The notes beneath the pieces were generated by a model. It ran no database searches, was not told the origin of the DNA, and was given only the letters and a program-made list of their open reading frames with translations. From an uncultured Myxococcales bacterium (lineage in GTDB: Bacteria > Myxococcota_A > Bradymonadia > UBA4248): DNA of 64,000 bases. Of this stretch, positions 5,274-64,000 are shown in pieces (the stretch's first letter is position 1; each line of letters starts with the position of its first letter). The DNA is taken from positions 13,890-77,889 of the forward strand of contig CAYVQF010000021.1 in assembly GCA_964454015.1 (NCBI GenBank), read 5' to 3'. The translations under genes were made by a program, and so were the position numbers.

Positions 5274-5979
5274 GGTTCTCAACGGCCAGTGGCGCCCCAC
5301 GCTTCTTGGCCCGATGGCGCTGCAATGAGCCATCCCCGCGTCGGCCTTGCAGGAGGAGCACCATGAGGTAGGCCGGCAGGCCAAGCAACGCCACGGCAAA
5401 GTAGCTGTGGAGATAGAGGGCCGCCACGGCGAGGGCCAAGAGTGCCAGGGCCGCGCCCCACATGCCGAGGCGGAACGCCTCATCGTTGCGGCGGGTCCAG
5501 AGATAAAAGGCCTCCAATCCCGCCACCAGCGCCACGGCCACCGCTGCGACGGGCCACATGGCCTGCTCCAAGGTCTCGGCCGCCCCCTGCCGCAGCAGGA
5601 TCAGGCTCGCCACCCAGGCGACCACGGCGACGCCCATGAAAATCACCATCGCGTGGCGCAGGGGGCGGAGCATCTCCCCCTGGCGCGGCGCGGCCGTCAC
5701 GAGGGTACCCAGGCGGTCTTGCTGCAGCAGCCGCACGGCCGCAGCGAGTGCCACCACGCCAAAGGGCAGGGCCAGCACGCCGCCGAGGATGCCGAGGCGC
5801 GCCCCTTGACGCGGACGCCCGCCCTGCGCGAACAGCGCCCCTGCTCCAGCCAGCAGCGCCCCCGCGGCGCCCGTCACCCCCAGAATCCACAGCCAGGGCA
5901 ACGCGACCACCGGCACGACCCACAAGGTCACGGCACCGACGAAAGCGACCACGATTCCAAGCCACAACAGCGCAGTCAT
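5263..5979 (-). CDS. Hypothetical integral membrane protein (about 6 TM helices)
   Basis: Hydrophobic helices throughout (MTALLWLGIVVAFVGAVTLWVV...). ATG at 5979. Overlaps the rsmG start by 11 nt, which suggests co-transcription. Confidence 0.45.
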   Translation of the reverse strand: MTALLWLGIVVAFVGAVTLWVVPVVALPWLWILGVTGAAGALLAGAGALFAQGGRPRQGARLGILGGVLALPFGVVALAAAVRLLQQDRLGTLVTAAPRQGEMLRPLRHAMVIFMGVAVVAWVASLILLRQGAAETLEQAMWPVAAVAVALVAGLEAFYLWTRRNDEAFRLGMWGAALALLALAVAALYLHSYFAVALLGLPAYLMVLLLQGRRGDGSLQRHRAKKRGAPLAVENHGR

Positions 5980-6224
5980 TGCTCTTCCAGGGGGGAGTAG
6001 TCGAGAAAAGACGGGGCGATCCCACGGCAGGGCGCCACTTGGCCGAAAATAGCACGCCCCACTCGGGGTGGCCACTGCTGCCAGCGCAGCAAACGGCGAG
6101 GCGGCCACCCCACGGCCAGCGCAACCTTGCCCCCCGAGGCGAAGGCCGCTAGCGTAGCCCGCGGTCGAAGGTCCGTTCACCCCTACTCGCCGCTCCGGTG
6201 AGCAGAGCCAACGAAGACGCAGCG

Positions 6225-8060
6225 ATGGCATACCTGGTATTGGCCCGCAAGTGGCGGCCGCAGAGCTTCACAGATGTCGTGGGACAGGGACACGTCACCC
6301 AGACCTTGGCCAACGCCATCCGTCAGGGGCGCGTGGCCCACGCCTTCCTCTTCACGGGCTCCCGAGGGGTGGGCAAAACCTCGACGGCCCGCATCCTGGC
6401 CAAGGCCCTCAATTGCCAAGAGGGCCCGACGCCGACCCCCTGCAACCAGTGCACGGCCTGCGTCGACATCACCGACGGCCGCGCCGTGGACATCATCGAA
6501 ATCGACGGCGCCTCGAACCGCGGCATCAACGAAATCCGCGAGGTGCGGGAGGCCGTTCGCTACGCCCCGAGCCGCGAGCGCTACAAAGTCTACATCATCG
6601 ACGAGGTCCACATGCTGACCACGGAGGCCTTCAACGCCCTGTTGAAGACCCTCGAGGAGCCCCCCAGCCACGCGGTCTTCGTCTTCGCCACCACCGAACC
6701 CAACAAAATCCCCGTCACCATCTTGAGCCGCTGTCAGCGCTACGACTTCAAGCGCGTCACCGTGCGGGATCTCTGTGAACGCCTGCGCCACATCGCCGAC
6801 GCCGAGGGGATCGACTTCACCGACGAGGCCTTGACCCTTTTGGCGCGCCACGCCCGCGGGGGCGTGCGCGACGCGCTGAGCGCGATGGACCAGGTCATCG
6901 CCTTCGCCGAACCCCCCATCAGCGCCGAGTCCGCCGCTGAGACCTTGGGCATCGCCAGCCGGGAGACCCTTCACTCCCTCGGCGAGGCGCTGGTCAACCG
7001 CGACGTGGATCGGGCCTTGCGGGTCTTGGAGAAGGTCGACAGCTATGGCCAAGACTTGGGCCATTTCTCCGTCGATCTCCTGGAGCACCTGCGTGACATG
7101 ACCGTGGTGTGCGCCGTCGCCGACCCCCAGGGGCTCACCGAGCTGGGCGAGTCCGAGCTAGAGCGGGTCAAGGCCGCCGTCAAGAACGTCAGCATCGAGC
7201 GCCTCCAGCGCATGTTTCAGATCTGGTCCGAGGCGGTGGACCTGGTCGTTCGCTCGCTCTATCCCAAGCTGTTGATGGAGATGACCGTGGTCAAGATGGC
7301 CGCCGTCGCGCCCATGCCGCCCCTGCTGCCCTTGCTCAGCCGCCTGGAGGCGCTGGAGAAATCGCTCCACGGCGACCTGCCGCGTGAGCAGGACTTGCTG
7401 GCCAAGATGCGGAGCCACCTGGCGGCGTCCCTCCGGGACTATGCGCCGCTGGGGTCCAGCGGTGACGCTCTGCCGGCGCCCTCTGAGCCACCCCCGGGGG
7501 AAAAAAAAAAGCCTGAAGCGCTAGCCTCTCGCGTCAGCGCGCCGCCGTCACCCCCGCAGCCGCCCCCTGCCACCACGGCGGCCACGCCGCACGCCCCAAC
7601 GAAAGTGGAAGCCCAAGAGACGCGGGCAGGGGCGATGGCGACGGCGGAGGTGAGCCCAGCGGAGTCTGGCGATCCTTGGCGTTCGGCCCTGCGGCGCCTC
7701 TCGCCCAAGGTAGCTGGGGTGATGGAGCAGGCCGTGGTGGTGCGTCTCGAGCCGACGGCGTTGGAGCTGGCCTTGAGCGATGGCTTGCGCGGGCTGTTGG
7801 TGGAAGCGGATTTGGCGGCCCTGCTCGACAGCCTCGCCCTGGAGTTGGGCGCACGGCCGCGCCTGCGCTTCGTCGAAGCGGCCCCAGCGGCCACCTTGTC
7901 GCTGGCCGAAGAGCGACAGCAAGCGCGTGAGCAGCATCAGGAGGCCATGCGCGAACGTATCCGCACGCATCCCTTGTTGGGCGAAGCCATGACGCGTTTT
8001 GGCGTCGACGCGAGCAGCGTCCGCATCGATTTACATCTCTATGAGGAGGATGAAGGATGA
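6225..8060 (+). CDS. dnaX: DNA polymerase III subunit tau/gamma
   Basis: MAYLVLARKWRPQSF..., Walker A GSRGVGKTS, and zinc module CNQCTAC. The C-terminal half is Pro/Ala-rich and tau-specific. It contains an in-frame A_AAA_AAG slippery heptamer at 7505-7511. Confidence 0.92.
   Translation: MAYLVLARKWRPQSFTDVVGQGHVTQTLANAIRQGRVAHAFLFTGSRGVGKTSTARILAKALNCQEGPTPTPCNQCTACVDITDGRAVDIIEIDGASNRGINEIREVREAVRYAPSRERYKVYIIDEVHMLTTEAFNALLKTLEEPPSHAVFVFATTEPNKIPVTILSRCQRYDFKRVTVRDLCERLRHIADAEGIDFTDEALTLLARHARGGVRDALSAMDQVIAFAEPPISAESAAETLGIASRETLHSLGEALVNRDVDRALRVLEKVDSYGQDLGHFSVDLLEHLRDMTVVCAVADPQGLTELGESELERVKAAVKNVSIERLQRMFQIWSEAVDLVVRSLYPKLLMEMTVVKMAAVAPMPPLLPLLSRLEALEKSLHGDLPREQDLLAKMRSHLAASLRDYAPLGSSGDALPAPSEPPPGEKKKPEALASRVSAPPSPPQPPPATTAATPHAPTKVEAQETRAGAMATAEVSPAESGDPWRSALRRLSPKVAGVMEQAVVVRLEPTALELALSDGLRGLLVEADLAALLDSLALELGARPRLRFVEAAPAATLSLAEERQQAREQHQEAMRERIRTHPLLGEAMTRFGVDASSVRIDLHLYEEDEG
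7501..7516 (+). other. dnaX: Putative programmed -1 frameshift or transcriptional-slippage site in dnaX (A10 run followed by a -1-frame TGA)
   Basis: Sequence gggggAAAAAAAAAAGCCTGAagcg. The zero frame reads E-K-K-K-P-E. After a -1 slip on A_AAA_AAG the frame reads GCC TGA (Ala, stop). This would give a gamma-like product of about 439 aa. Confidence 0.6.
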
Positions 8061-10252: not shown

Positions 10253-11403
10253 AGCGACCGCTCTGCCCCGCTCAACATGGCGTCCAAAGCGATGGAGCAG
10301 CCCTTGGCCACGGCGCCAGCCCGGCCGCACAACTGCAAACAGGCGTCCACGGGCCACGGGAGATGGGCCGCCGCCTCGGGCGGCACTGGGTGACAGCGCC
10401 CCAAGTCCCCCGTGAGCACGTACGCCGCCGAATCCAAGTTGGCCAGATCCCGCAGGGCGATCTGCCCCTCTTCGCCCCAGGGCAACTCGGTCAGGCTGTC
10501 CGGGTCGAGCACGGCGAAGCGGCACCATGGCGGCCCCACGAAGCGATCCCGCAGCGCCAACGCCAGATCCCCGTGCCCAGCCAAGGCCAGCGCCATGGAC
10601 GCCTCATAGAGCTGGCTCGAGAGCTCAGACATCCCATACTCGGCCACGATCAGCGCCGCCTCCAGCCCCAGGGTCGCCACCAAAGCGGCGTGCAAGTCTG
10701 GGCGGGGAACCTGGCGGCTCAAGCCCTTGTAGCCACCGGTCTCCAATAGCCGCGACCCCGCTGGCAGACGCCAGCGCCGCCCCCCGAGGCCATCCAGAAA
10801 ATGGACGAAAGCGAAAGAGGGCCCCAACAAAAACACCGGGCGCCCTGAAGCCTCGGCCGCATCCAACGCCGCCGTGAGCCGGGGCGCGTCCAAGTTGCCC
10901 GCCGCGTCGACGAGGAAGTGCCCCCCACCGTGGTGGCGCATCAAGTGGGCGAACATATGCACCAGCGAGCTGTGCGGTGCGTCGGCGTCACTTGGGGTCA
11001 GCACCCACCATGACAGCTCGGCGCCGTCGCCCAAGACCATGGGCGCAAAGGTCGCCAGGATCGCCGTGTCCATCAACGCCAGGGTCTTGAAAACGTGACG
11101 CGAGCGCTGCTCCGCCGTCGTGCCGCTGGAAAAGAAGGTCGCCACCGCCTCGGAGGCGTCATGGGGAAAGAGGTCAGCCCGTTTGAAGGCCTCCACGGGC
11201 AGCGGCGGCAAGCCCCAGGGATCACCGCCGGGCTCGACGCCGCCGTGGCGACAATAGCGCCCATAGAGAGGGTGCGCCTGCGCCTGGTAGGTCATGATCT
11301 GCGCCGTCAACGCACGCCAAGCCTCGGGCGCGAGGCCGCGGGTCATCCCGGCCAACAAGGCCTGCTCCAGGCGCGCCCGCTCCGCTGCCCACCTGGCCGC
11401 CAT
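10243..11403 (-). CDS. Acyl-protein synthetase, LuxE-like (adenylate-forming)
   Basis: FFSSGTTAEQRSRH matches the LuxE SSGTTG nucleotide-binding motif. Length about 387 aa. ATG at 11403 shares one nt with the rex stop. Confidence 0.55.
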   Translation of the reverse strand: MAARWAAERARLEQALLAGMTRGLAPEAWRALTAQIMTYQAQAHPLYGRYCRHGGVEPGGDPWGLPPLPVEAFKRADLFPHDASEAVATFFSSGTTAEQRSRHVFKTLALMDTAILATFAPMVLGDGAELSWWVLTPSDADAPHSSLVHMFAHLMRHHGGGHFLVDAAGNLDAPRLTAALDAAEASGRPVFLLGPSFAFVHFLDGLGGRRWRLPAGSRLLETGGYKGLSRQVPRPDLHAALVATLGLEAALIVAEYGMSELSSQLYEASMALALAGHGDLALALRDRFVGPPWCRFAVLDPDSLTELPWGEEGQIALRDLANLDSAAYVLTGDLGRCHPVPPEAAAHLPWPVDACLQLCGRAGAVAKGCSIALDAMLSGAERSLWM

Positions 11404-23557: not shown

Positions 23558-27676
<4,119 letters not shown>

Positions 27677-27795: not shown

Positions 27796-31902
<4,107 letters not shown>

Positions 31903-35996: not shown

Positions 35997-38900
35997 GTGA
36001 TGGGCGACGGAATTTTCCTCAACGATCGTTACCGTATGGGTGACCTCCTGGGTGAGGGCGGCATGGGCCGTGTCTTCCGGGCTCAGGATCTCCGTCTCCA
36101 GCGCGACGTGGCGATCAAGTTCTTGCCACGCATCGACAAGGCGAGCATGGTCGAGCGCTTTCGCGCCGAAGCCATGGCCGTGGCCCGTCTGAATCACCCC
36201 AACATCGTGACGGTCTTCGACTACGATTACCTAGAGGGCAACCACGCGGCCCTGAGCGCTCTGGGTCTGTCGCAGAACCCGCCCTGCCTCCCCGGGGACG
36301 ATCTCGCTGGCGAGCTCCAGCGTGGCCAACCTTTCATCGTCATGGAGTATCTGCCGGGGAAGAGCATCCGCGAGGCCGAGCTCAGCGACGCCGTGGCCAT
36401 CCTCGACGTGGGGCTCGCCCTGTGCGACGCCCTCGACTACGCTCACCGCGAAGGGATCGTGCACCGCGACGTCAAGCCCGACAACATCCGCATCACCGAC
36501 GATGGGCGGGTGAAGCTCCTCGATTTTGGCATCGCCTCCTTCTGCCACCGGCGGCGGATCACCCTGGACGGCGAGGTCCTGGGCTCTCTGGTCTATATGT
36601 CACCCGAGCAGGCCCTGAGTGAGCCCATCGACGCCCGCTCGGACATCTACGCCCTGGGTCTGGTCCTGTACGAGTTGCTGGCAGGGCGGCTGCCCTTCGA
36701 TGTCTCCAGCCCCATGCGCTCCTTGGAGCAACGCACCTCGGGGACCTTGCCCGGCCTGCGCAAGTTTTGCCCCAAGCTGCCCCTGGCGTTGGAGCAGGTC
36801 TTGGCGCGGGCCTTGGCGCGCCAGCCCGAGGGGCGCTACGCGACAGCGAGCGACTTTGGCCAAGCCCTCCGCGAAGTGCGCGACGCCATGGCCCAGAGCA
36901 TGGCCAACGCCACGACCTTCGGCCGCTATGAGCTGATCAAGCTCTTGGCCGTTGGCGGCATGGGGGAGATCTACCTGGCCCGCGTCAAGGGCCCCGCCAA
37001 CTTTGAGAAGCGCTGCGTCATCAAGAAAATCCTGCCGCATCTGGCCACCGAAGAGGAGTTCGTCACCAAGTTCATCGACGAAGCCAACACGGTGGTTCAG
37101 CTCACCCACGGCAACATCGTGCCGGTCTTCGACATGGGTGAGCACCAGGGGGAATACTTCATCGCCATGGACTACATCCCTGGCGTCAACCTGCGCACCC
37201 TGCTCAAGGCCCGGGCGCAGCGCCAGAGTCCTCTGCCGGTGGCCATGTGCATCCACCTCCTCTGTGAGGTGTGTAAGGGTCTGAGCTACGCCCACCGCAA
37301 ATGCGGCACCGACGGTCAAGCCCTGGGGATCATCCACCGCGACATCAGCCCCTCGAACATCTTGGTCTCTCTCGAAGGAGAAGTGCGGCTCGTCGACTTT
37401 GGCATCGCCAAAGCGACCTCGCGGATCACCCGCAGCGTGACGGGTCGCCTGCAGGGCAAGTTCGGCTACATGAGCCCTGAGCAAGCCAGTGGCGCCCCCC
37501 TCGATCTGCGCTCGGACATCTTCTCGGCTGGCGTCGTTCTCTACGAATGCCTGACCGGCGCCCGTCCTTTCGAAGGGGAGTCAGACCTGGCCTCCCTCGA
37601 GGCCGTCAAGAGTCACGAGGCGGCGGCACCCAGCACGTTGCGCCCAGGGATCGCCAAGGAGCTCGACCAGATCGTCGCCAAAGCGCTGGCCAAGAAGCCA
37701 GCGGATCGTTTCGCCAATGCCGACGACTTCCTCGACGCGTTGCTGAAGTTTTTGGTGACCACGGGCCAACATGTGACGCCGCAGGACCTGGCCAAAGAGG
37801 TCGCCGCCGACATGGACGGCGGCGACGACGCCATGGGCGGCGCTGCCTGCCTCGACGCCTTGCTCGGGCAGGAGGTTGACAGGCTCATCGCCGCAGAGCG
37901 GCGCCAGAGCGCGCAGACGCTGACGGCAACGGCCGACTCGAACCGCACGAACGACGGCGCCGCGCTCCTCGCCCCGCTCAGCGAAGAGGACACGGCGACC
38001 CTCTCGTCACCGGGGCAGACCCCTACGGCGCCACCACGCGATGAGCCTAGCCCTGCCCCCAAGCGCCAGGGCTCGCGTCGGTGGCGGTGGTTGGCGGCCC
38101 TGCTGCTCGTGGGGCTGGTGCTCTTCCTCGGGCAACAGTGGCTGGCCCAACGCAGCGGTCAAGCGCCTCAGCAGATCACGCCTGCGGCGGCGGCCGCCGC
38201 TGCGGCGCCGGAGGTGGATCCAGAAGAAGCCGACGTGGAGCCACCCCAGGTCCCGGCCCAGACTGAACCCGTCGCGCGCTGGCACAGCTTCGACTTCGTC
38301 ACCAGCCCGGAAGAAGCGCTGATGGTCGTCCAATCGGGGCTCGCCGATGTGGACCACAGCGCCGATCTGGTGCGCCTCAACACGAGTCGCCAGGCGTCGC
38401 TGACCTTCTCCGCCGAGGGATATGCGGCCTGCACGCTGGACTTGCAACTCGCGCCCCTGATGGGCGAGCCCGTGCAGGTGCCCGTCCTGCACGCCAAAGG
38501 CTGTCTCAGCGCCTATATCGCCGGGGGATCCCCCCTGCCCGATGGCACACTGAGCATCGCCGTGCAGCTCGCCAAGCTGGACGTGGTGGTCGAGGTTGCG
38601 CCGCCCGACAGCGGCGAGGGCAGCGTTGCCAATGGTTCTTCCCGCAGGGATGGCAACGGCAAGCGGCCCAAGGAGGGGGAGCGCAGCCCGCGGGCGCTGG
38701 CCGTGACGGTGCGCTCCAACGTCGAGGCGACGGTCAGCCTCGGTGATCGCAGTGGTGCGGCGCCCTTCACGGCGCAGGTCAACCGCGGCCAGGACGCCGT
38801 GCAGATCAAAGTGACGCCGCGCGGGCTGGGGCTGCCTTGGCAGCGCAGCTTCGATCCGGCGAGCGTAGAGCGCGGCTTGGAGCAGACGGAGATGGAGGCG

Positions 38901-39161
38901 CGTTTCTGCCCGGTGGTGGTACACGTGGTGGAGCCGCGCATCCCCGACGATCCAGCGCCTTATGGCGTGGCAGACGTCTACGTGGGTGAGGCGTTGATCG
39001 CGCGCGGGGTTTCGCGGGCTTCCTTCGTGGTGCCCTGTGGGCGGCACAAGGTCAGCTTGCGCTATCGCGGCGACGACGTGGAGTTGCAGGGCGAAGCGTT
39101 GGTGGACGCCAGCAGCGACAAAGCAGCCAGCGCCTCGATCGCCATGCAGCGGGTCCGATAA
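35997..39161 (+). CDS. Membrane Ser/Thr protein kinase with two tandem kinase domains and C-terminal PEGA-like extracytoplasmic region
   Basis: Domain 1 has GEGGMGRVF, VAIKFL, HRDVKPDN and DFG. Domain 2 has GGMGEIYLA, VIKKIL, HRDISPSN and DFG. A TM helix WRWLAALLLVGLVLFLG follows, and the C-terminus carries a PEGA-like VYVGEALIARGVSRASFVVPCGRHKVSLRY. Confidence 0.8.
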   Translation: MMGDGIFLNDRYRMGDLLGEGGMGRVFRAQDLRLQRDVAIKFLPRIDKASMVERFRAEAMAVARLNHPNIVTVFDYDYLEGNHAALSALGLSQNPPCLPGDDLAGELQRGQPFIVMEYLPGKSIREAELSDAVAILDVGLALCDALDYAHREGIVHRDVKPDNIRITDDGRVKLLDFGIASFCHRRRITLDGEVLGSLVYMSPEQALSEPIDARSDIYALGLVLYELLAGRLPFDVSSPMRSLEQRTSGTLPGLRKFCPKLPLALEQVLARALARQPEGRYATASDFGQALREVRDAMAQSMANATTFGRYELIKLLAVGGMGEIYLARVKGPANFEKRCVIKKILPHLATEEEFVTKFIDEANTVVQLTHGNIVPVFDMGEHQGEYFIAMDYIPGVNLRTLLKARAQRQSPLPVAMCIHLLCEVCKGLSYAHRKCGTDGQALGIIHRDISPSNILVSLEGEVRLVDFGIAKATSRITRSVTGRLQGKFGYMSPEQASGAPLDLRSDIFSAGVVLYECLTGARPFEGESDLASLEAVKSHEAAAPSTLRPGIAKELDQIVAKALAKKPADRFANADDFLDALLKFLVTTGQHVTPQDLAKEVAADMDGGDDAMGGAACLDALLGQEVDRLIAAERRQSAQTLTATADSNRTNDGAALLAPLSEEDTATLSSPGQTPTAPPRDEPSPAPKRQGSRRWRWLAALLLVGLVLFLGQQWLAQRSGQAPQQITPAAAAAAAAPEVDPEEADVEPPQVPAQTEPVARWHSFDFVTSPEEALMVVQSGLADVDHSADLVRLNTSRQASLTFSAEGYAACTLDLQLAPLMGEPVQVPVLHAKGCLSAYIAGGSPLPDGTLSIAVQLAKLDVVVEVAPPDSGEGSVANGSSRRDGNGKRPKEGERSPRALAVTVRSNVEATVSLGDRSGAAPFTAQVNRGQDAVQIKVTPRGLGLPWQRSFDPASVERGLEQTEMEARFCPVVVHVVEPRIPDDPAPYGVADVYVGEALIARGVSRASFVVPCGRHKVSLRYRGDDVELQGEALVDASSDKAASASIAMQRVR

Positions 39162-48301: not shown

Positions 48302-48349
48302 CCCCACCAAAAAAGTCAGCTACCGCTCTGGTAGAGCTTCAAGCGGTAG
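48302..48349 (-). terminator. Rho-independent terminator of the DnaI-like gene (minus strand)
   Basis: On the minus strand, stem AGCTCTACC/GGTAGCT overlaps the last codons, then GACTTTTTTGG follows. Confidence 0.45.
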
Positions 48350-49134
48350 TCGCTCCCGATGAGCGACATGGGCTCGCACATCTGGTAAATCCGGCTCTCG
48401 GCGCGCTCGCCGATGCGGTCGTCGAGGGCGTCGGCCTTGGCCCCGCTGGGCTGCATGGCCTTGGGAAAGTAGTTGGAGGCAAAGAGCGTGGTCAGCGAGG
48501 TGTCGTTGTAGCGCCGGGTGATGAGCTCGTCGACGATGCGCAGCTCAAAGTCATTGCAGCGACCTTTCCCGAGCTCGTCGATGGCCAAGACGGGCACCTT
48601 GACCAGGGGCTCGAGGATCTCGGCCTCGGAGCGGTTCTCCGCATAGAGCTTGCGCAGCTCCCCGAGGAGGTGGCTGAACTCGATGTAACGACAGGCGACC
48701 CCCATCTCCAGGCTCATATAGCGCAGCATGGCGACCAAGAGGTGGGTCTTGCCGGTGCCGACCCCGCCGACCAACAAATAGCCTCGGGCTCCGGGTCTGA
48801 AACGCGCCAAGTAGGCACCAATCGCTTCGAGCAATGGCCCGTGATTGGCCTGGTGGGGGATGAAGGTTTCGAGGCTGGCCTCGGCATAACGCGCCGGAAC
48901 GCGCGCCTGATTGAAGCGCTCGATGCGGCGGTCCAGCGACGCCCCCGGGCACGGCCTCAAGGTGCGGTAGCCCCGGGCATCGTAGCTGGCGAGGTGCGCT
49001 GTCCCTTGGCAGAGCGGGCAGTGGTCGATGTTGATGGCCGGGCGCTCTGCCACGGCCCACGCCCCTTGGGCGCGAACCAAGGGCTGGCCAACCTTGGCGA
49101 GCAAACACTGGGTGAGATCATGGGGAGCGCTCAT
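48316..49134 (-). CDS. DnaC/DnaI/IstB-family AAA+ ATPase with an N-terminal zinc ribbon (putative helicase loader)
   Basis: N-terminal CPLCQG...C zinc-ribbon-like motif. Walker A GGVGTGKTHL, Walker B LAIDELG, and an Arg-finger region RRYND. No adjacent IstA transposase. Confidence 0.65.
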   Translation of the reverse strand: MSAPHDLTQCLLAKVGQPLVRAQGAWAVAERPAINIDHCPLCQGTAHLASYDARGYRTLRPCPGASLDRRIERFNQARVPARYAEASLETFIPHQANHGPLLEAIGAYLARFRPGARGYLLVGGVGTGKTHLLVAMLRYMSLEMGVACRYIEFSHLLGELRKLYAENRSEAEILEPLVKVPVLAIDELGKGRCNDFELRIVDELITRRYNDTSLTTLFASNYFPKAMQPSGAKADALDDRIGERAESRIYQMCEPMSLIGSDYRLKLYQSGS

Positions 49135-57469: not shown

Positions 57470-58324
57470 ATGAACTTTTCTCGAAAAAACAACGAAAGCC
57501 TCCGCCTGGCGCTCATGCTGGCCCTGGCGCTCTCGATCTTCGCCGTTGCCGCCTGTGACGACGAGACATCGGACCCCAAGCCCGCCGACACCCAGGACAC
57601 CTCGAACTCCGACTTGGTCGTTCCTGACGTCACGGAGCTCGACGGCAGCGAACCCGACGTCACCGAGCCTGACGTCACCGAGCCCGACGTCACCGAGCCC
57701 GACCTCACCGAGCCCGACCTCACGGACATCGCCGAGCCCGACGTCACGGACATCGCCGAGCCCGACGTCACGGACGTCGCCGAGCCCGACGTCATCGAGG
57801 TGCCCACCGAGGAGTGGATCGGCGCGAGCTGCGCGTGCGAAGGCAACGGCTGCGTGACCTTGGGCGTGCCCGTACCCAACGGCGGCACGATCGTCGGCTG
57901 CGACAACGTGCCCACGGACTTGACTGGCGCCGAGCTGGTGTGCTTGCGCACCTACGTCGGCGAGGGCGGCACCAAGACCTATTTCGCCAACGGTTACTGC
58001 TCGCTGATGTCGGTGGCCTGCACGGGCAGCGATGTGATCTGCACTCCGGCGACCATGGGGGATCACACGGCGATGACGCGCTGCCCCGCGGGTTCGGCGA
58101 TGGTGGAGTCGACCATCGACGTCAACGTGATCATTTTCGATGCGACCGTTTCGAACAAGACCTGCGCCCTGCGCTGCGAAAGTGACGCCGACTGTCGCTT
58201 GGGCGAGACGGATCCGGTGTTGAATGACGCGCCGTCCCAGTACGCTTGCGTCGACGGCGGCACAGCCAAGTTCTGCTATGATCCCAGGAACTTGCCTGCA
58301 GAGTACACAGTCACGCCGTTCTGA
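57470..58324 (+). CDS. Lipoprotein with an acidic (E/D)PDVT tandem-repeat linker and a C-terminal Cys-rich domain
   Basis: Lipobox FAVAAC. About 10 copies of EPDVT/EPDLT/DIAEPDVT. A C-terminal domain with about 12 Cys. Confidence 0.6.
   Translation: MNFSRKNNESLRLALMLALALSIFAVAACDDETSDPKPADTQDTSNSDLVVPDVTELDGSEPDVTEPDVTEPDVTEPDLTEPDLTDIAEPDVTDIAEPDVTDVAEPDVIEVPTEEWIGASCACEGNGCVTLGVPVPNGGTIVGCDNVPTDLTGAELVCLRTYVGEGGTKTYFANGYCSLMSVACTGSDVICTPATMGDHTAMTRCPAGSAMVESTIDVNVIIFDATVSNKTCALRCESDADCRLGETDPVLNDAPSQYACVDGGTAKFCYDPRNLPAEYTVTPF
57651..57800 (+). repeat. Tandem 15-nt/24-nt coding repeats (GAGCCCGACGTCACC family)
   Basis: Five consecutive 15-nt units, then three 24-nt units GAGCCCGACGTCACGGACATCGCC, with point variants. 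Confidence 0.85.
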
Positions 58325-58622
58325 GCTAGGTAGCGCCGGGTCACTTGCTTAGATCAAGAGGTGCTGGCGACATCCACCTTGCGTTGCGGCACAAGCTTGG
58401 GCACCGGGCTCCAACGCAGCCCACCGTTGCCGCAACGGCAAAGAGCAGCAGGGAGTGCCTGCGCAGCGTTGGGCCCCTGGCGCGCGCCGCTGAGAGCTCC
58501 ACGCTCCCCCGAGCCAGCGAGCGGCAGCGCCATGTACCTTGGAAGTAGCACCCAAGGCAGGCCTGTGGTAGTGCAAGGAGTTGCCACGCAGGCGCAGCGG
58601 CGCCAGCGTGCCTTTGGGTATC

Positions 58623-61451
58623 ATGGAGAAAGCGATGGGCGCACGCAGAATGAGCTTCGTCGATGAGAAGCGTTGGATCCTGGACCTGAGCGATCTGGTC
58701 GAGCGTGACGTCAAGCCCGCCCGCTTGCGTCAGTTGCGCATGCGCGTCGGCGGCAAGGCGCTCAACTTGGCACGGATGGCATCCCTGGGACTGGCCGTGC
58801 CCGACGCCTTCGTCATCACCACCGAGGCCTTTCGCTTTGGCTTGGATCGCATGCTGCGCCATGTACCCGACCTGCGGCACGCCGCGCAGACCCTGCGCAC
58901 GGCCCCGCTCCCACCCGCTCTTGCTCAGGCGTTGGCCGAAGCTTACGCCCAGCTAGGGCCCGACGCCACGGTGGCCGTTCGCTCCAGCGCCACCGATGAG
59001 GACGGCGAAGAGCGCTCCTTTGCGGGTCAACAGGCGACCTTTCTCAACGTGCGCGGGGCTGCCGCCGTCGATCAAGCCGTGCGCGACGTGTGGGCGAGTC
59101 TCTTTGGCGTCGAGTCGCTGCTGTACCGGGGCCGCTTGCGCCTGGATGAGCGGCCACCCGAGATGGCCGTGGTGGTGCAGCGTTTCGTGCGGGCTGAGGT
59201 CGCAGGCGTGCTGTTCACCACCAATCCCCTAGACAGTGAGGCCGACGAGGCCATGATCTGTTCGGCCTACGGTATCGGCGAGAGCGTGGTCGCTGGCCAC
59301 GCCGCCGACACCTTCTACATTCACCGCAAGCGGCGCACCATTCGGCGGGCCGTACGCCCCAAGACCTCGAAGTTCGAGGCTGCCGACCGCGTGGGTCTGA
59401 AGCTGGTGAGCCTCCCGGAAGACTTGGCCGAGGCGCCCAGCTTGAGCGAGGCGCGGGTGCAACACCTCCTCGACTTGGGACTCTCTTTGGAGCGCTATTT
59501 TGGTGAGGCCCAGGACATCGAGTTCGCCTTCGCCCCCGAGAGCGGGGCGCTCTCGGCGGGCCAGGCAGAAGATGGTCTCTACGTCTTGCAGGCCCGCACC
59601 ATTACCGGCCGCCGCGAGGCCTCACTGGTGCCGGGTCCAACGAGCACCCTCTATTCCAACGCCAACGTCGGCGAGGCGTTGCCTGGGGTCGGGACACCCA
59701 TCACCTGGTCGATCATCCGCGGCTACACGCGCCGCGGCTTCGACAGCGCCTTTGGCGCCCTCGGTTTGCGCGTGCCGCGGGAATACGCCATGGTCGCCTC
59801 CTTTCGCGGCCGTGTCTATTTGAACATCTCCGAGTTCGTCTCGGTGGCGTCACAGATTCCCCTGCTCACCGGCGAGACCTTGGCGCGCCTTGGCGGCGTC
59901 CTGAATGCCACCGGTCTTGAAGGCACCTACACCCGGATGCGCCCGGGCGCCTTTTTGCGCCGCCTCCCCATGACCTTGCCCCGGCTGGCCATGAGTCAGT
60001 TCGTGACGCCCCTCCGCGCCGCCTGGTGGTCGCGCCGTTTCGTCCACCGCCGGGATCACATCCTGCAGCGGGATTTGGGCAAGCTCGAGAAGCACGCCCT
60101 CCTGGACCTCGCCCATGAGATCGACGCCATTTTTCATCAGACAGGCGAGCTGATGCTGTCTTGTGCGGCGAACTTCCTCATGAGTTACGCCGTTGTCAGC
60201 CGCGCCCTCGAGGTCGTGGGTGGCGCTGAGGCCGCCCGAGAGGAGACGGAGCTCTTCAGCGGCCTGACCCGGGTACGCAGCGCCGCACCAGGTCTGGAGC
60301 TTCTGGCCCTGGCGGCCTACATCCGTGCGCGGCCTCTGTTGCGCGCGCGCTTTGGCCAGGGATGTTGCCAGGATCTGCAGGACAAAGACTGCGGTGAGGC
60401 CCTCCTGGCCACCTTGCGCGAGAGCGCCGAAGGGCGAGAGTTCCTCAAACGCCTCGACGCCTTCCTCGCCCGTTGGGGCCTGCGTGCCTTGCGCGAAGCA
60501 GACATCGCCACGCCGCGCTGGCGCGAAGATCCGAGCTTTCTCCTCGGCGTCTTACAGCGCCACGTCAGCGCCGAGCACCTCCCGCACCCCGAGAGCATCG
60601 AAGCCGAGCAGGCACGCCAGCGCGCCCAGGCGACCCACTTCATTCGCCGCCACTTCTTTCCCGGCCTCGGCGTGGTCTTTCGCTCGCTCTTGGCCTGGTC
60701 ACAGGCCTATGCCCGTCTGCGCGAGGAGTGGCGCGCCAATGTGGTCGACAGCATCGCCCTCTACCGGCATTTCTTCCTGGAGATTGGCCGGCGCCTGGTT
60801 GACCACAACCTCCTCTGTGAGCAAGAGGACGTCTTCTTCCTCACTTACCCTGAAATCGTCGCCTGGCTCGAAGGCGGCGGCGAGCTGGTCCACGCGGCCC
60901 GCCGCTGGGTCGCCTTCAGGCGCGCGCAGTATGACGCCTTCGTCGAGAGCCCGGATCCACCGGACACCTTCCTTTTGACCCACGCCCAGGAAGTCCAAGA
61001 CGTCGCGCCACCTGCCATCGAGGGAGACAACCTCTATGGTCTCCCGGGCTCGCCCGGCGTGGTCAGCGGCAGAGCGCGGGTCATCGAGTCCCTCCAGGGC
61101 GCCCACATCCCGATCCAGACCGGGGAGATTCTCGTCACCACCTTCACCGACGTCGGCTGGACCCCTCTGTTCTTGCTCGCCGCAGCGGTCGTCACCGAGC
61201 GTGGCGGTCCCTTGTCACACTCCTGTGTCGTCGCCCGCGAGTACGGCATCCCCGCGGTAGCCGGCGTCACGGGGGTCATGCAGCGGGTGGCCAACGGGGA
61301 TCTCATCACCGTCGATGGGAAGGCGGGCCGCGTGGTCATTCACCGCGACGCGAGTGGCACGGCGGCCCACCCCGACGCGCCAGGCCACTCACCCGAGCCC
61401 GTTATCGGCGAGAATGGCACGCACATCCACAAAGGGCACGTCGTCGTCTGA
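58623..61451 (+). CDS. PEP-utilising-domain phosphotransferase of the rifampicin-phosphotransferase (RPH)/PEP synthase-like family
   Basis: N-terminal PPDK-N ATP-grasp region (RVGGKALNLARM..., VAVRSSATDEDGEERSFAGQQATFLNV). C-terminal swivel phospho-His domain GGPLSHSCVVAREYGIPAVAGV. No C-terminal TIM-barrel PEP/pyruvate domain. Start is uncertain (TTG 58581, ATG 58623 or 58635). Confidence 0.65.
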   Translation: MEKAMGARRMSFVDEKRWILDLSDLVERDVKPARLRQLRMRVGGKALNLARMASLGLAVPDAFVITTEAFRFGLDRMLRHVPDLRHAAQTLRTAPLPPALAQALAEAYAQLGPDATVAVRSSATDEDGEERSFAGQQATFLNVRGAAAVDQAVRDVWASLFGVESLLYRGRLRLDERPPEMAVVVQRFVRAEVAGVLFTTNPLDSEADEAMICSAYGIGESVVAGHAADTFYIHRKRRTIRRAVRPKTSKFEAADRVGLKLVSLPEDLAEAPSLSEARVQHLLDLGLSLERYFGEAQDIEFAFAPESGALSAGQAEDGLYVLQARTITGRREASLVPGPTSTLYSNANVGEALPGVGTPITWSIIRGYTRRGFDSAFGALGLRVPREYAMVASFRGRVYLNISEFVSVASQIPLLTGETLARLGGVLNATGLEGTYTRMRPGAFLRRLPMTLPRLAMSQFVTPLRAAWWSRRFVHRRDHILQRDLGKLEKHALLDLAHEIDAIFHQTGELMLSCAANFLMSYAVVSRALEVVGGAEAAREETELFSGLTRVRSAAPGLELLALAAYIRARPLLRARFGQGCCQDLQDKDCGEALLATLRESAEGREFLKRLDAFLARWGLRALREADIATPRWREDPSFLLGVLQRHVSAEHLPHPESIEAEQARQRAQATHFIRRHFFPGLGVVFRSLLAWSQAYARLREEWRANVVDSIALYRHFFLEIGRRLVDHNLLCEQEDVFFLTYPEIVAWLEGGGELVHAARRWVAFRRAQYDAFVESPDPPDTFLLTHAQEVQDVAPPAIEGDNLYGLPGSPGVVSGRARVIESLQGAHIPIQTGEILVTTFTDVGWTPLFLLAAAVVTERGGPLSHSCVVAREYGIPAVAGVTGVMQRVANGDLITVDGKAGRVVIHRDASGTAAHPDAPGHSPEPVIGENGTHIHKGHVVV

Positions 61452-62087
61452 GAAGGGCAACCCTTGGGCGGCAACCCGGCGCATGGCCCGGTCGAAGTGT
61501 GCATCGACCCGATCCGCGCTGGGACACATCCGGTAGTAGGCCCATCCGGTAAAGAGCCGCCTGATCCCACCCCAGGTCGGCATCTCCTTGCGCAGCCAAT
61601 AGGAGATGCACAGGTCCATGGTGTAGCCCCGGACCTCGGTCCAAGTACGCCAGGGCGCAGGCCACGGCGCCAAGGCCAGCAGGAAGAGCAAGAAGAGCCA
61701 GCCCCACGGGGTCCACCACGCGCTCACGGCGCCGAGCGCTCCCAGGACGGCGAGTTGGGGCATCAGGTACCCGAGGGAGAAGCGCCAGCGCGACTGTTTG
61801 GCGTCCCACAAGTGCACATACTCGTGGGCGAGAGTCTGCCAGGCCATGCGCGGGTATTTCTGCACATCCGCCCGAGTCGGGAAGTAGACCCGCGGGTAAA
61901 TGGCCGTGGTATAGTCCCGCATATAGCCCGCGACAAAAGGTCGCAGCAGCCAGCCCAAGAGGCGCTGCTGCCGCGACTCATCCTTGTAGTGAATGGCAAA
62001 GCCAGGAATCCGCTCGGCCATCCTCTCACAAAGCGCTGCCAATATCTGTTCGTCGACGCTCTCGACGCCTTGCACCACACGTTGCAT
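61389..62087 (-). CDS. Hypothetical membrane-associated protein with an HExxH motif (possible zinc metallopeptidase-like)
   Basis: HEYVHLWD, then a hydrophobic helix LAVLGALGAVSAWWTPWGWLFLLFLLALA. Its 3' end overlaps the convergent RPH-like gene by about 63 nt. Confidence 0.35.
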   Translation of the reverse strand: MQRVVQGVESVDEQILAALCERMAERIPGFAIHYKDESRQQRLLGWLLRPFVAGYMRDYTTAIYPRVYFPTRADVQKYPRMAWQTLAHEYVHLWDAKQSRWRFSLGYLMPQLAVLGALGAVSAWWTPWGWLFLLFLLALAPWPAPWRTWTEVRGYTMDLCISYWLRKEMPTWGGIRRLFTGWAYYRMCPSADRVDAHFDRAMRRVAAQGLPFSDDDVPFVDVRAILADNGLG

Positions 62088-62099
62088 GATCGCGACTCA

Positions 62100-63509
62100 T
62101 CAGCGCGTTCGCGCCGCGAACTCTCCCGTAATGGAGTAACGCGGCTTGCCGCTCTCGGAACCCTGCTGCGGTACTGCACCCTGGATCTGTTGGCGCAATA
62201 GCTGCCGCCGACAATCGGCGACGCGCGCCTCCAGCGCTTCCGACAGCGACACCACGTCGACAGGCAAGACCATATGCTTGTCGACGCCACAAAAATTGAC
62301 GGCCGCTTCGAGCATCTGGCCGTTGAGCTTGGCAGAGATCAGCAGCCGCTGGCTCGCTGGCATGTCGCGCAGCGCGTGCAGGACCCGGCTCTGCACGATG
62401 ACGTGCAGATCGCCAAAGAGCACCAACCACGGCGGCTGCACCTCGCCCGCGAGCAGGGCTTTGGCCTCGCGCGCCGCATCGTCGCGCGAGATCTCGATGA
62501 TGTCATAGTGGGAGGCCACCGTCCGCACGCGCTCGATGAAGACCTGATCCACCGCGGGATCACCCGAGAGGATCCAGATGCTCGGGTTCTCGCTGACGCC
62601 GCCGCCGTGACTCTCAGGGGCCGCAACCGCTCCCATACGGCCGCTGCTGTGGCGACGTTGAATGCCAGCGAAGGTGTCCGTGATGTCCACCGCCGCTACC
62701 GCCGTGTCGAAGGCATCCAGAAACTCCAAGGCGGTGTGATATCGCCGCTCCGGCTCTGGCGCCCAGGCCACAGCGACCGTCTCTACCAGACGCTCCCACA
62801 GATCCCGCGCGCTATCACTCAGCTCTTCTGCCCGGTAGCTGCACTCCCTCACCTGGCCAAAGAGGCACACACGCAAGACCATGCCAAGGGCATAGAGGTC
62901 AGAACGCACGGTCGGCGGCTCAGCAGCGAGCAGCTCGGGCGCCAAAAAGGGCAGGCGCTCCGCCTCCGCTGACAGCGCGCGGAGCCAGTGTGCCGGGTGC
63001 AGCGCCTGCTCGAGGCCATAATCGATGAGCGTCGCGTGTTCCGTGACGGCGTCATGCTCGGCCAACAAGATCGTGTGGGGCGAGATCTGCCGGTGCATCA
63101 GCCCGTTGCGGTGCCCCTCTGCCAAGGCGCCGAGGAGCTGTCGCGCCAGGTTGAGCACCCGCGCTGGCGCCAAGCGCCCCTCGCGCCGCAGGTGCTCGTG
63201 CAGCGTGTCCCCCAGGATGTACTCCATGACCACATAGGGGCCATGCACCCCGCCGATGTCGGCGGCGCCAGCGTCGATGACCGTACAGTTGTGCGGATGT
63301 TGCAAGCTCGACAGCGCGACAATCTCATTCTGAAAGCGTTGGGTCGCTTCGGTGATCTGGGTGGCCAGGAGGCGGATGACCACATAACGTCCCAGGTTGA
63401 CCTGACGGGCCAAGTAGGACGTGAAGAGCGTATTGCCGCCAAGGCGCTCCAGAATTTCGTACTCTTTGAGGTTGAGGTCGTCGAACTTCATCTTGGCCCT
63501 GATCACCAC
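62100..63509 (-). CDS. Degenerate protein-kinase-like (pseudokinase) domain fused to a receiver-like C-terminal domain
   Basis: Kinase-like fold with degraded catalytic motifs. The Gly loop is LGGNTLFTSY, HRQISPHT replaces HRDLKPxN, and DYG replaces DFG. The C-terminal 130 aa resemble a CheY-like domain (IWILSGDP...LVLFGDLHV). Confidence 0.5.
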   Translation of the reverse strand: MVIRAKMKFDDLNLKEYEILERLGGNTLFTSYLARQVNLGRYVVIRLLATQITEATQRFQNEIVALSSLQHPHNCTVIDAGAADIGGVHGPYVVMEYILGDTLHEHLRREGRLAPARVLNLARQLLGALAEGHRNGLMHRQISPHTILLAEHDAVTEHATLIDYGLEQALHPAHWLRALSAEAERLPFLAPELLAAEPPTVRSDLYALGMVLRVCLFGQVRECSYRAEELSDSARDLWERLVETVAVAWAPEPERRYHTALEFLDAFDTAVAAVDITDTFAGIQRRHSSGRMGAVAAPESHGGGVSENPSIWILSGDPAVDQVFIERVRTVASHYDIIEISRDDAAREAKALLAGEVQPPWLVLFGDLHVIVQSRVLHALRDMPASQRLLISAKLNGQMLEAAVNFCGVDKHMVLPVDVVSLSEALEARVADCRRQLLRQQIQGAVPQQGSESGKPRYSITGEFAARTR

Positions 63510-63624
63510 GCCGGAGTATCAGCCTCGAGGCCATCGGCCCCGGCAAAACCGGTGCATTGTCTGTTTTGCCACGGGAAACGCAATGTCTATTTTCCCCTCT
63601 GTTGCGAAAAATCAGCCTCGCCGC

Positions 63625-64000
63625 CTACTCCGACGCATCGAAGTAGAGGTTCAAGTGCCGCCCGTCGGAGACCATCGCCCGCTTGGGTTCACTGAACTTC
63701 TTCAAGTCGACGAAATAGACCCGGACCGTGTGGTTGCCGTTGTCGACCTTGAAACGGGTCAAGGGGGTCTTGGAGGCCACCAGCTTCCCATCGATATAGA
63801 CCTGGCCGCTGGGGTTGGAGTTGACCGTGAGGAAACCCGCACCATCGACCACCTCGGCCACCGGGTCTTCTTTGCTCTCCAACGGTGGCGGGGCGGCGCT
63901 GGCCATCTGCACGGGAGCAGCGCTCGTCGGCGCGGCGCTCGCCTTGTTGGTGGCCCCCGAGAGATCGACCACCAAAATCCGCGCCTCTCCCTTCTGCAGC
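63625..64000 (-). CDS. PEGA-domain protein; 5' end lies outside the window
   Basis: C-terminal PEGA signature GQVYIDGKLVASKTPLTRFKVDNGNHTVRVY. The ORF runs to the window edge. Confidence 0.5.
   Translation of the reverse strand, partial: LQKGEARILVVDLSGATNKASAAPTSAAPVQMASAAPPPLESKEDPVAEVVDGAGFLTVNSNPSGQVYIDGKLVASKTPLTRFKVDNGNHTVRVYFVDLKKFSEPKRAMVSDGRHLNLYFDASE

Follow-up and report, generated by a model that had tools for sequence, protein, structure and literature searches.

A probable small-molecule dikinase of the RPH/PigC superfamily in an uncultured myxococcal bacterium

What kind of enzyme is encoded by a gene that joins an ATP-grasp domain to a terminal phosphohistidine (phospho-His) swivel domain and has no phosphoenolpyruvate (PEP)/pyruvate barrel? 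The question is raised by a gene, here called the dikinase gene, in a 64,000-nucleotide (nt) stretch of DNA from an uncultured Myxococcales bacterium of the Bradymonadia (contig CAYVQF010000021.1, positions 13,890 to 77,889), which we refer to as the window. The original prediction, made from the sequence letters, placed the product near the rifampicin phosphotransferases (RPH) and proposed either an antibiotic-inactivating enzyme or a kinase for an endogenous metabolite. In total, the observations described below favor, with a probability of roughly 85%, a reading in which the gene is intact and encodes a member of the RPH/PigC superfamily, namely, an ATP-dependent small-molecule dikinase with its three domains fused, with a conserved acceptor of its own and with a functionless overlap at its 3' end.

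Gene, domains, and catalytic residues

The open reading frame (ORF) spans 58581..61451 on the plus strand. Translation was originally placed at the ATG at 58623, which gives 942 amino acids (aa), and all residue numbers below follow this 942-aa form. A GGAG stands 6 nt 5' of a second ATG, at 58635, and other annotations list a 938-aa product; 58635 is therefore the likelier start. Public collections already hold a 938-aa protein (P0001) that is 100% identical to the dikinase. The codon signature is coding-like, with a G+C fraction of 0.82 at third codon positions (GC3) versus 0.48 at second positions (GC2), and the stop is the TGA at 61449-61451. The dikinase gene and its convergent HExxH neighbor recur with 100% identity and 0 gaps in a k141 MEGAHIT contig from ENA (L001) and in a Logan contig (L002); with the window, these make three assemblies, possibly of one common sample, and both the sequence and the overlap of the two genes are therefore reproducible among assemblers. 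The gene is intact. Its parts are as follows.

58635..61451, plus strand: coding sequence of the RPH/PigC-type dikinase, 938 aa (alternative start at 58623, 942 aa)
58743..59621, plus strand: PPDK_N ATP-grasp domain (Pfam PF01326, E 2e-67, residues 41-333)
59640..60992, plus strand: central acceptor-binding domain, approximately residues 340-790, placed by a precomputed PF27448 match, hhalign, and structural alignment
59652..59867, plus strand: acceptor-site block, residues 344-415 (YSNANVGEALPGVGTPITWSIIRGYTRRGF...RGRVYLNIS...), the most conserved segment of the clade, with residues mapped by MAFFT and hhalign
60720..60734, plus strand: catalytic "block 9," R700-E701-E-W-R704, invariant in 27/27 clade members
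61116..61328, plus strand: phospho-His swivel domain (PEP-utilizers mobile domain, PF00391, E 7e-22, residues 832-902)
61341..61451, plus strand: unique C-terminal tail, residues 907-942, HRDASGTAAHPDAPGHSPEPVIGENGTHIHKGHVVV, and the TGA; without counterpart in 26 homologues

The domain order was read originally as an RPH-like ATP-grasp domain followed by a terminal His domain with no barrel, and this reading holds. The Pfam search of the dikinase returned no domain other than PPDK_N and PEP-utilizers, to which precomputed matches add a newer Pfam model, PF27448 ("Rph_4th"), that spans part of the middle of the protein. The His-domain motif that had been quoted, GGPLSHSCVVAREYGIPAVAGV, is present, and the codon of His866 occupies nt 61218-61220. 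A barrel continuing beyond 61451 through a missed frameshift had been named as the finding that would overturn this assignment; in the three plus-strand frames of 61300-64000 there is no Pfam match at an E value of ≤1 and hence no PEP/pyruvate barrel. This downstream DNA is filled by two minus-strand genes with coding-like GC3, encoding the HExxH protein and a Ser/Thr kinase, and all 26 aligned homologues terminate no more than about 25 residues past the swivel domain. Profile-profile comparison with hhalign aligns the dikinase to RPH and to PigC with 100% probability over 823 to 854 columns, and the central domain is homologous to the RIF (rifampicin)-binding domain of RPH and to the substrate-binding domain of PigC/HapC. 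In an AlphaFold2 model of the dikinase (predicted local distance difference test [pLDDT] score, 83.7; predicted template modeling [pTM] score, 0.84), Foldseek finds a full-length alignment to the Listeria RPH structures only (920 to 947 columns; E 1e-44), and PpsA and PPDK structures cover only the ATP-grasp and swivel parts (≤476 columns). The architecture is thus confirmed as that of RPH (ATP-grasp domain, large central domain, and terminal His swivel) and not that of PpsA or PPDK.

Can such a protein still carry out the chemistry of a swivel dikinase, as described for RPH-Lm of Listeria monocytogenes (PMC4844700), HapC (PMC13534948), and HpeHI (PMC12167813)? We mapped the catalytic residues by alignment to those of RPH-Lm that were defined by mutagenesis and structure (PMC4844700). 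K45, R120, and T139 align with the ATP-site residues K22, R117, and T136, whose roles in RPH-Lm were established in the same study, and they are kept in the clade. The phospho-His, H866, lies in T858-E-R-G-G-P-L-S-H866, which fits the T/SxxGGxxxH motif given in PMC12167813, and aligns with RPH-Lm H825; S553 corresponds to T523 of the hydrogen-bond network. The counterparts of block 9 are R666-E667-x-x-K670 in RPH-Lm and R692-E693-x-x-R696 in HapC, where a part in the second phosphotransfer has been assigned by mutagenesis (RPH-Lm; PMC4844700) and by inference from docking (HapC; PMC13534948). The residues mapped for the two half-reactions vary little or not at all across the 27 clade members, and both half-reactions are plausibly intact.

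Based on these homologies, we propose a mechanism of three steps. In the second, His866 of the C-terminal swivel domain would attack the beta-phosphate of ATP, with the gamma-phosphate freed as inorganic phosphate (Pi) and AMP leaving. In the third, the swivel domain would move to the large central domain. There, E351, R700, E701, and R704 would hold the phosphate during its transfer to an oxygen of the bound small-molecule acceptor, yielding either a phosphorylated product or an intermediate activated by phosphate, as PigC does. The net activity that we infer is the conversion of ATP and acceptor to AMP, Pi, and phospho-acceptor.

Acceptor site, relatives, and rival identities

If the catalytic machinery is that of a known superfamily, what distinguishes this protein is its acceptor site. 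The central domain contains the block at residues 344-415, in which mean pairwise identity within the clade reaches 71%, compared with 47% overall and 42% in the ATP-grasp domain; the block holds G350-E351, at the positions of Q336-Q337 in RPH, and R370-R371. An earlier scan of genome contigs with the single dikinase sequence found no relative, and a profile-guided scan of species-representative genomes found 335, the best 80 of which are almost all Myxococcota (Bradymonadales, Lujinxingia, Persicimonas, Microvenator, Polyangiales, and Sandaracinus). A protein search returned >1,000 matches, and the top 120 are all at least 39% identical to the dikinase. The dikinase belongs to an orthologous, uncharacterized clade that extends across the Myxococcota. 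The clade has a strongly conserved acceptor pocket of its own, and its substrate is therefore most likely a single conserved acceptor, other than a rifamycin or the prodigiosin precursor MBC. Where RPH contacts the hydrophobic core of rifampin, the dikinase has Arg370 and Arg371, a hint that this acceptor may be polar or anionic.

The genes around the dikinase homologues suggest one possible setting for such an acceptor. In the 81 loci compared, there is a single recurrent arrangement, tetR-cutA-dikinase on one strand. A TetR gene lies one to two genes upstream on the same strand in 24/75 loci and a CutA1 gene is found in 22/75, both confirmed by Pfam; the arrangement is confined to a sublineage of the Bradymonadaceae/Lujinxingiaceae, where it suggests ligand-inducible expression. 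We know of no previous description of a tetR-cutA-dikinase module. Examples, each on a single strand, are as follows.

L030, 6432-10345, same strand: tetR(-cutA)-dikinase
L048, 6905-10547, same strand: tetR(-cutA)-dikinase
L044, 6939-10553, same strand: tetR(-cutA)-dikinase
L003, 9319-12703, same strand: tetR(-cutA)-dikinase

We speculate, and offer this only as a tentative proposal, that the clade defines a new acceptor specificity, in which an extremely conserved, Arg-rich pocket (G350-E351, R370-R371, F373, and R704) would receive a polar or anionic molecule that resembles none of the substrates known for the family, and that in the Bradymonadaceae/Lujinxingiaceae the enzyme is the output of a ligand-inducible tetR-cutA-dikinase module. 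If true, CutA would thereby gain its first proposed functional context beside a phosphotransferase, with a possible tie to the predatory lifestyle of these bacteria.

Could the same arrangement point instead to detoxification? On this alternative, the clade would be a ligand-inducible kinase that disarms a xenobiotic or antibiotic other than a rifamycin, for example, a phenolic or a macrolactone from sediments or prey. The TetR gene one to two genes upstream in 24/75 related loci, usually as tetR-cutA-dikinase, is consistent with this view, as are the xenobiotic substrates of the characterized relatives (rifamycins, zearalenone, and phenolics derived from lignin), and the TetR-linked orthologues have acceptor-site residues in common with the window dikinase. 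However, neither TetR nor CutA is encoded beside the window dikinase or its nearest relatives, and the acceptor block is conserved phylum-wide in a core-chromosome setting, which a fixed endogenous acceptor fits at least as well; the conserved Arg370/Arg371 would also suggest a polar or anionic acceptor over a hydrophobic one. We regard detoxification as a possibility that is more doubtful than not.

The next question is how far the characterized relatives constrain the substrate. The full sequences of RPH-Lm, other rph products, and PigC were recovered from annotated or misfiled plasmid records and compared with the dikinase by MAFFT and hhalign. On this comparison, the nearest characterized relatives are the PigC-type condensing enzymes, somewhat closer than RPH: pairwise bit scores are 295 to 312 against PigC and 246 to 271 against RPH, and hhalign scores are 962 (E 9e-121) and 798 (E 1e-99), respectively. 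Among 333 plasmid-borne relatives, three align over 93% of the dikinase in one piece, and all three lie inside pig clusters, which encode a PigA-like acyl coenzyme A (acyl-CoA) dehydrogenase, the DUF6041/flavin adenine dinucleotide (FAD) oxidoreductase PigB, PigC, PigD, the class III aminotransferase PigE, and the methyltransferase PigF. The clade is like PigC, and unlike RPH, in having the G-E motif, an Arg at the position of K670 (R704 in the dikinase), the loss of F479, and an RGxVYLNIS block.

Might the dikinase, then, be a condensing enzyme of the PigC/RedH type, which would activate a bipyrrole aldehyde in the synthesis of prodiginine or tambjamine pigments? Its best pairwise and profile scores go to true PigC, the features just listed are PigC-like, the NCBIfam models for RedH and PigC are among its top matches, and one source names a homologue PigC; the TGE/VGE motif and the logic of His-mediated phosphotransfer are common to PigC, HapC, and RedH as well (PMC13534948). 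Yet the NCBIfam matches fall far below the cutoffs (414 versus 1,300 for PigC, NF052631; 416 versus 1,350 for RedH, NF052632), and identity to PigC is only 29.5 to 31%. The cavity differs too: the residues proposed as cavity or gatekeeper positions in HapC/PigC, T346, V350, T351, A694, T695, and P697, are replaced by V349, L353, P354, E702, W703, and A705, and the sole cavity or gatekeeper residue that is kept, as mapped by motif and alignment, is HapC G347, which is G350 here. True PigC genes are flanked by PigB-like genes on one side and PigD/E/F genes on the other, whereas the dikinase gene has no pig or red cluster: the window is core chromosome (rpoBC and the genes for IleRS, ValRS, and DnaX) with no pigA/B/D/E/F-like genes, and no pig genes are among the recurrent neighbors in 80 related loci. 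A role in prodiginine or tambjamine synthesis is thus very improbable.

The antibiotic-inactivating option of the original prediction, as applied to rifampicin, is strongly disfavored, and we give almost no credence to a genuine rifamycin-inactivating RPH that confers rifampicin resistance. There is a case to be made for it, in that the dikinase has the same fused three-domain order as RPH-Lm (PDB 5FBS, 5FBT, and 5HV1), its sole full-length structural match, and has in common with it the ATP-site Lys/Arg/Thr, the phospho-His, and the Arg-Glu of block 9; some sources also label homologues "rifampicin phosphotransferase." The RpoB in the window (rpoB, 23558-27676, plus strand; rpoC, 27796-31902, plus strand; about 31 kb upstream of the dikinase gene) is wild type in cluster I of the rifampicin resistance-determining region at D516, H526, and S531 (Escherichia coli numbering) and looks rifampicin sensitive; an RPH would thus benefit the cell.

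The sequence comparison runs the other way. Stogios et al. found that the validated RPH clade is >42% identical to RPH-Lm and conserves the RIF contacts, while more distant clades retain the catalytic block only, and one such protein, when tested, gave no RIF resistance (PMC4844700). The dikinase is 26% identical to RPH-Lm and 30% to a Streptomyces rph product, and it scores 346 bits against a cutoff of 999 with the NCBIfam model RIF_Ptrans_rph (NF041857) and 237 against 1,700 with the Rph model (NF000283). Alignment of the rifamycin-binding residues, which had been suggested as a check, goes against this identity. RPH-Lm Q336, Q337, Y351, T354, P356, and A357 correspond to G350, E351, I365, Y368, R370, and R371, and M359, V368, L387, L478, F479, and M673 correspond to F373, L382, V408, F504, a gap, and V707. 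No residue is the same at any of these positions: 0/10 hydrophobic RIF contacts are kept, two are now Arg, and the replacement of Q336-Q337 by G350-E351 is agreed by MAFFT and hhalign. With the clade profile in HMMER, RPH-Lm residues of about 332-540, the first half of the central domain, were not alignable. Finally, as indirect evidence, the type strain of Bradymonas sediminis, FA350, is described as "extremely sensitive" to rifampicin (PMC7188933), and the species has a clade member (P0089) that is 41% identical to the dikinase; P0089 is assigned at the level of the species, and the B. sediminis gene lies behind a TetR gene, such that repression is possible.

The weakest alternative is an ordinary PEP synthase or PPDK from which a frameshift or assembly error removed the C-terminal PEP/pyruvate TIM barrel (PEP-utilizers_C). 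It draws on the names that several sources and the NCBIfam PRK06241 models give to relatives ("phosphoenolpyruvate synthase") and is effectively refuted by the absence of Pfam matches downstream, by the two minus-strand genes with coding signature in that DNA, by the identity of the sequence in three assemblies, by the common end point of all homologues, by the partial matches to PpsA/PPDK structures, and by the position of the His domain, which is central in PpsA/PPDK (PMC4844700) and terminal here. What remains in common with PpsA/PPDK is homologous ATP-grasp and swivel His domains and dikinase chemistry (ATP to AMP plus Pi or pyrophosphate [PPi]); the central Rph-type domain is absent from those enzymes, and the TIM barrel is absent from the window dikinase. 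The two-component phenolic dikinases HpeHI, CreHI, and PpsAB (phenylphosphate synthase) and the Bacillus zearalenone phosphotransferase belong to the same small-molecule dikinase superfamily. HpeI (PDB 9goj) matches the ATP-grasp domain of the dikinase, and the RIF-binding and swivel domains have their homologue in HpeH (PMC12167813). The two-component kinases consist of two polypeptides and act on phenolic substrates, whereas the window dikinase is fused.

Convergent overlap and gene surroundings

The dikinase gene ends inside a gene on the opposite strand. Is this overlap a regulatory device or simply a by-product of base composition? The two features concerned are as follows.

61389..62087, minus strand: HExxH neighbor, 232 aa, no Pfam domain; HEYVH at nt 61812-61826; hydrophobic residues 112-146
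61389..61451, both strands: convergent overlap, 63 nt, in codon-aligned antisense register; identical in L001 and L002

An overlap of about 63 nt had been noted originally and was called unusual. The length stands, at exactly 63 nt in all three assemblies, the window and the ENA k141 and Logan contigs; the rarity does not stand, given that 13/155 convergent pairs in related loci (about 8%, an approximate baseline that depends on heuristic gene calls) overlap by at least 60 nt. On the dikinase strand, the overlap falls at the end of the 36-residue tail that is absent from 26 homologues, and residues 911-942 have a pLDDT of about 25 and are predicted by AlphaFold to be disordered. On the minus strand, it encodes the conserved C-terminal helix of the HExxH family: the HExxH protein has 72 homologues of similar length, its C terminus fits the family consensus, and its AlphaFold2 model (pLDDT, 92.6) has a confident C-terminal helix at residues 217-228.

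With the antisense frames codon aligned, a plus-strand stop can occur only where the HExxH gene uses TTA, CTA, or TCA. These three codons make up 0.39% of codons in the long genes of the window, for which an open run of about 254 codons is expected, and the TGA of the dikinase gene, read on the opposite strand, is the one TCA (Ser213) that the HExxH gene contains. The dikinase frame would thus stay open across a tail that is unconserved and disordered and close at the first of its neighbor's rare codons that reads as an antisense stop. A scan for promoters and terminators around the gene pair found no terminator within the overlap, and the HExxH gene is not beside the dikinase homologues of other organisms in the loci compared. 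The 63-nt overlap is a passive consequence of high G+C content, with no function and no role as a regulatory device, and the HExxH gene is not functionally linked to the dikinase. At another locus, L007, a called 95-aa ORF (10619-10906, minus strand) overlaps the dikinase 3' end by 64 nt; this may be a real gene or a shadow ORF.

The neighbors of the dikinase gene in the window encode a tetratricopeptide repeat (TPR) protein, an NTP-transferase, a Cys-rich acidic-repeat protein, the HExxH protein, and the Ser/Thr kinase, and none of them is conserved beside homologues in the related loci compared. The gene directly upstream (57470-58324, plus strand) encodes a 284-aa protein with no Pfam match, a signal- or lipoprotein-like N terminus, about 10 acidic repeats in tandem (EPDVT/EPDLT), and a C-terminal half rich in Cys. 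In L006 and L007, where the dikinase relatives are 46 to 47% identical, the gene directly 5' of the dikinase gene (5712-7937 and 5743-7986, respectively) encodes a secreted protein of 741 or 747 aa with thrombospondin type 3 (TSP3) repeats, DUF7107, and EB modules; these two proteins, which are homologous only to one another, share 62% identity and have no counterpart in the window.

Three further features of the window lie farther away. A 1,054-aa protein (35997-39161, plus strand) has two separate Pkinase stretches, suggesting a tandem-kinase Ser/Thr kinase. The G+C fraction is 0.59 to 0.62 over about 16 to 30 kb, a segment that includes rpoB and the start of rpoC, versus 0.65 to 0.69 elsewhere. 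An IstB_IS21 (IS21 helper ATPase) Pfam match at 48316-49134 on the minus strand (equal to L001 positions 1-500), flanked by a PfkB-like kinase gene and a FabH-like/ValRS block, indicates an insertion sequence remnant in the core region.

What the clade would mean for the family

We return to the proposal that the gene encodes an intact small-molecule dikinase with its own conserved acceptor. Several points weigh against it. The dikinase activity of the whole clade is derived from homology, and the idea of one conserved acceptor is derived from the conservation of the pocket. Beyond G350/E351 and block 9, the pocket was mapped by sequence alignment at about 26 to 30% identity, and MAFFT and hhalign differ on the placement of parts of 351-387. 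The unconserved neighborhood gives no clue to the substrate of the window dikinase, and the comparison of convergent overlaps carries the uncertainty given with it above.

The dikinase is an ordinary new member of a known superfamily, but how its relatives are named matters. Annotation pipelines label them PEP synthase, pyruvate,water dikinase, rifampicin phosphotransferase, or PigC, and all of these names are wrong or unsupported for the clade. That the dikinase fails each of the tests that define RPH averts a false antibiotic resistance call in resistome surveys of sediment and soil metagenomes, where Myxococcota are common. The overlap with the HExxH gene carries a more general point, namely, that long convergent overlaps in high-G+C genomes can arise passively.

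For the family itself, the clade is a large and well-conserved branch, still new to experiment, within a group of enzymes that act on antibiotics, pigments, mycotoxins, and lignin phenolics. Bradymonas, Persicimonas, and Lujinxingia provide cultivable hosts in which its substrate could be discovered.

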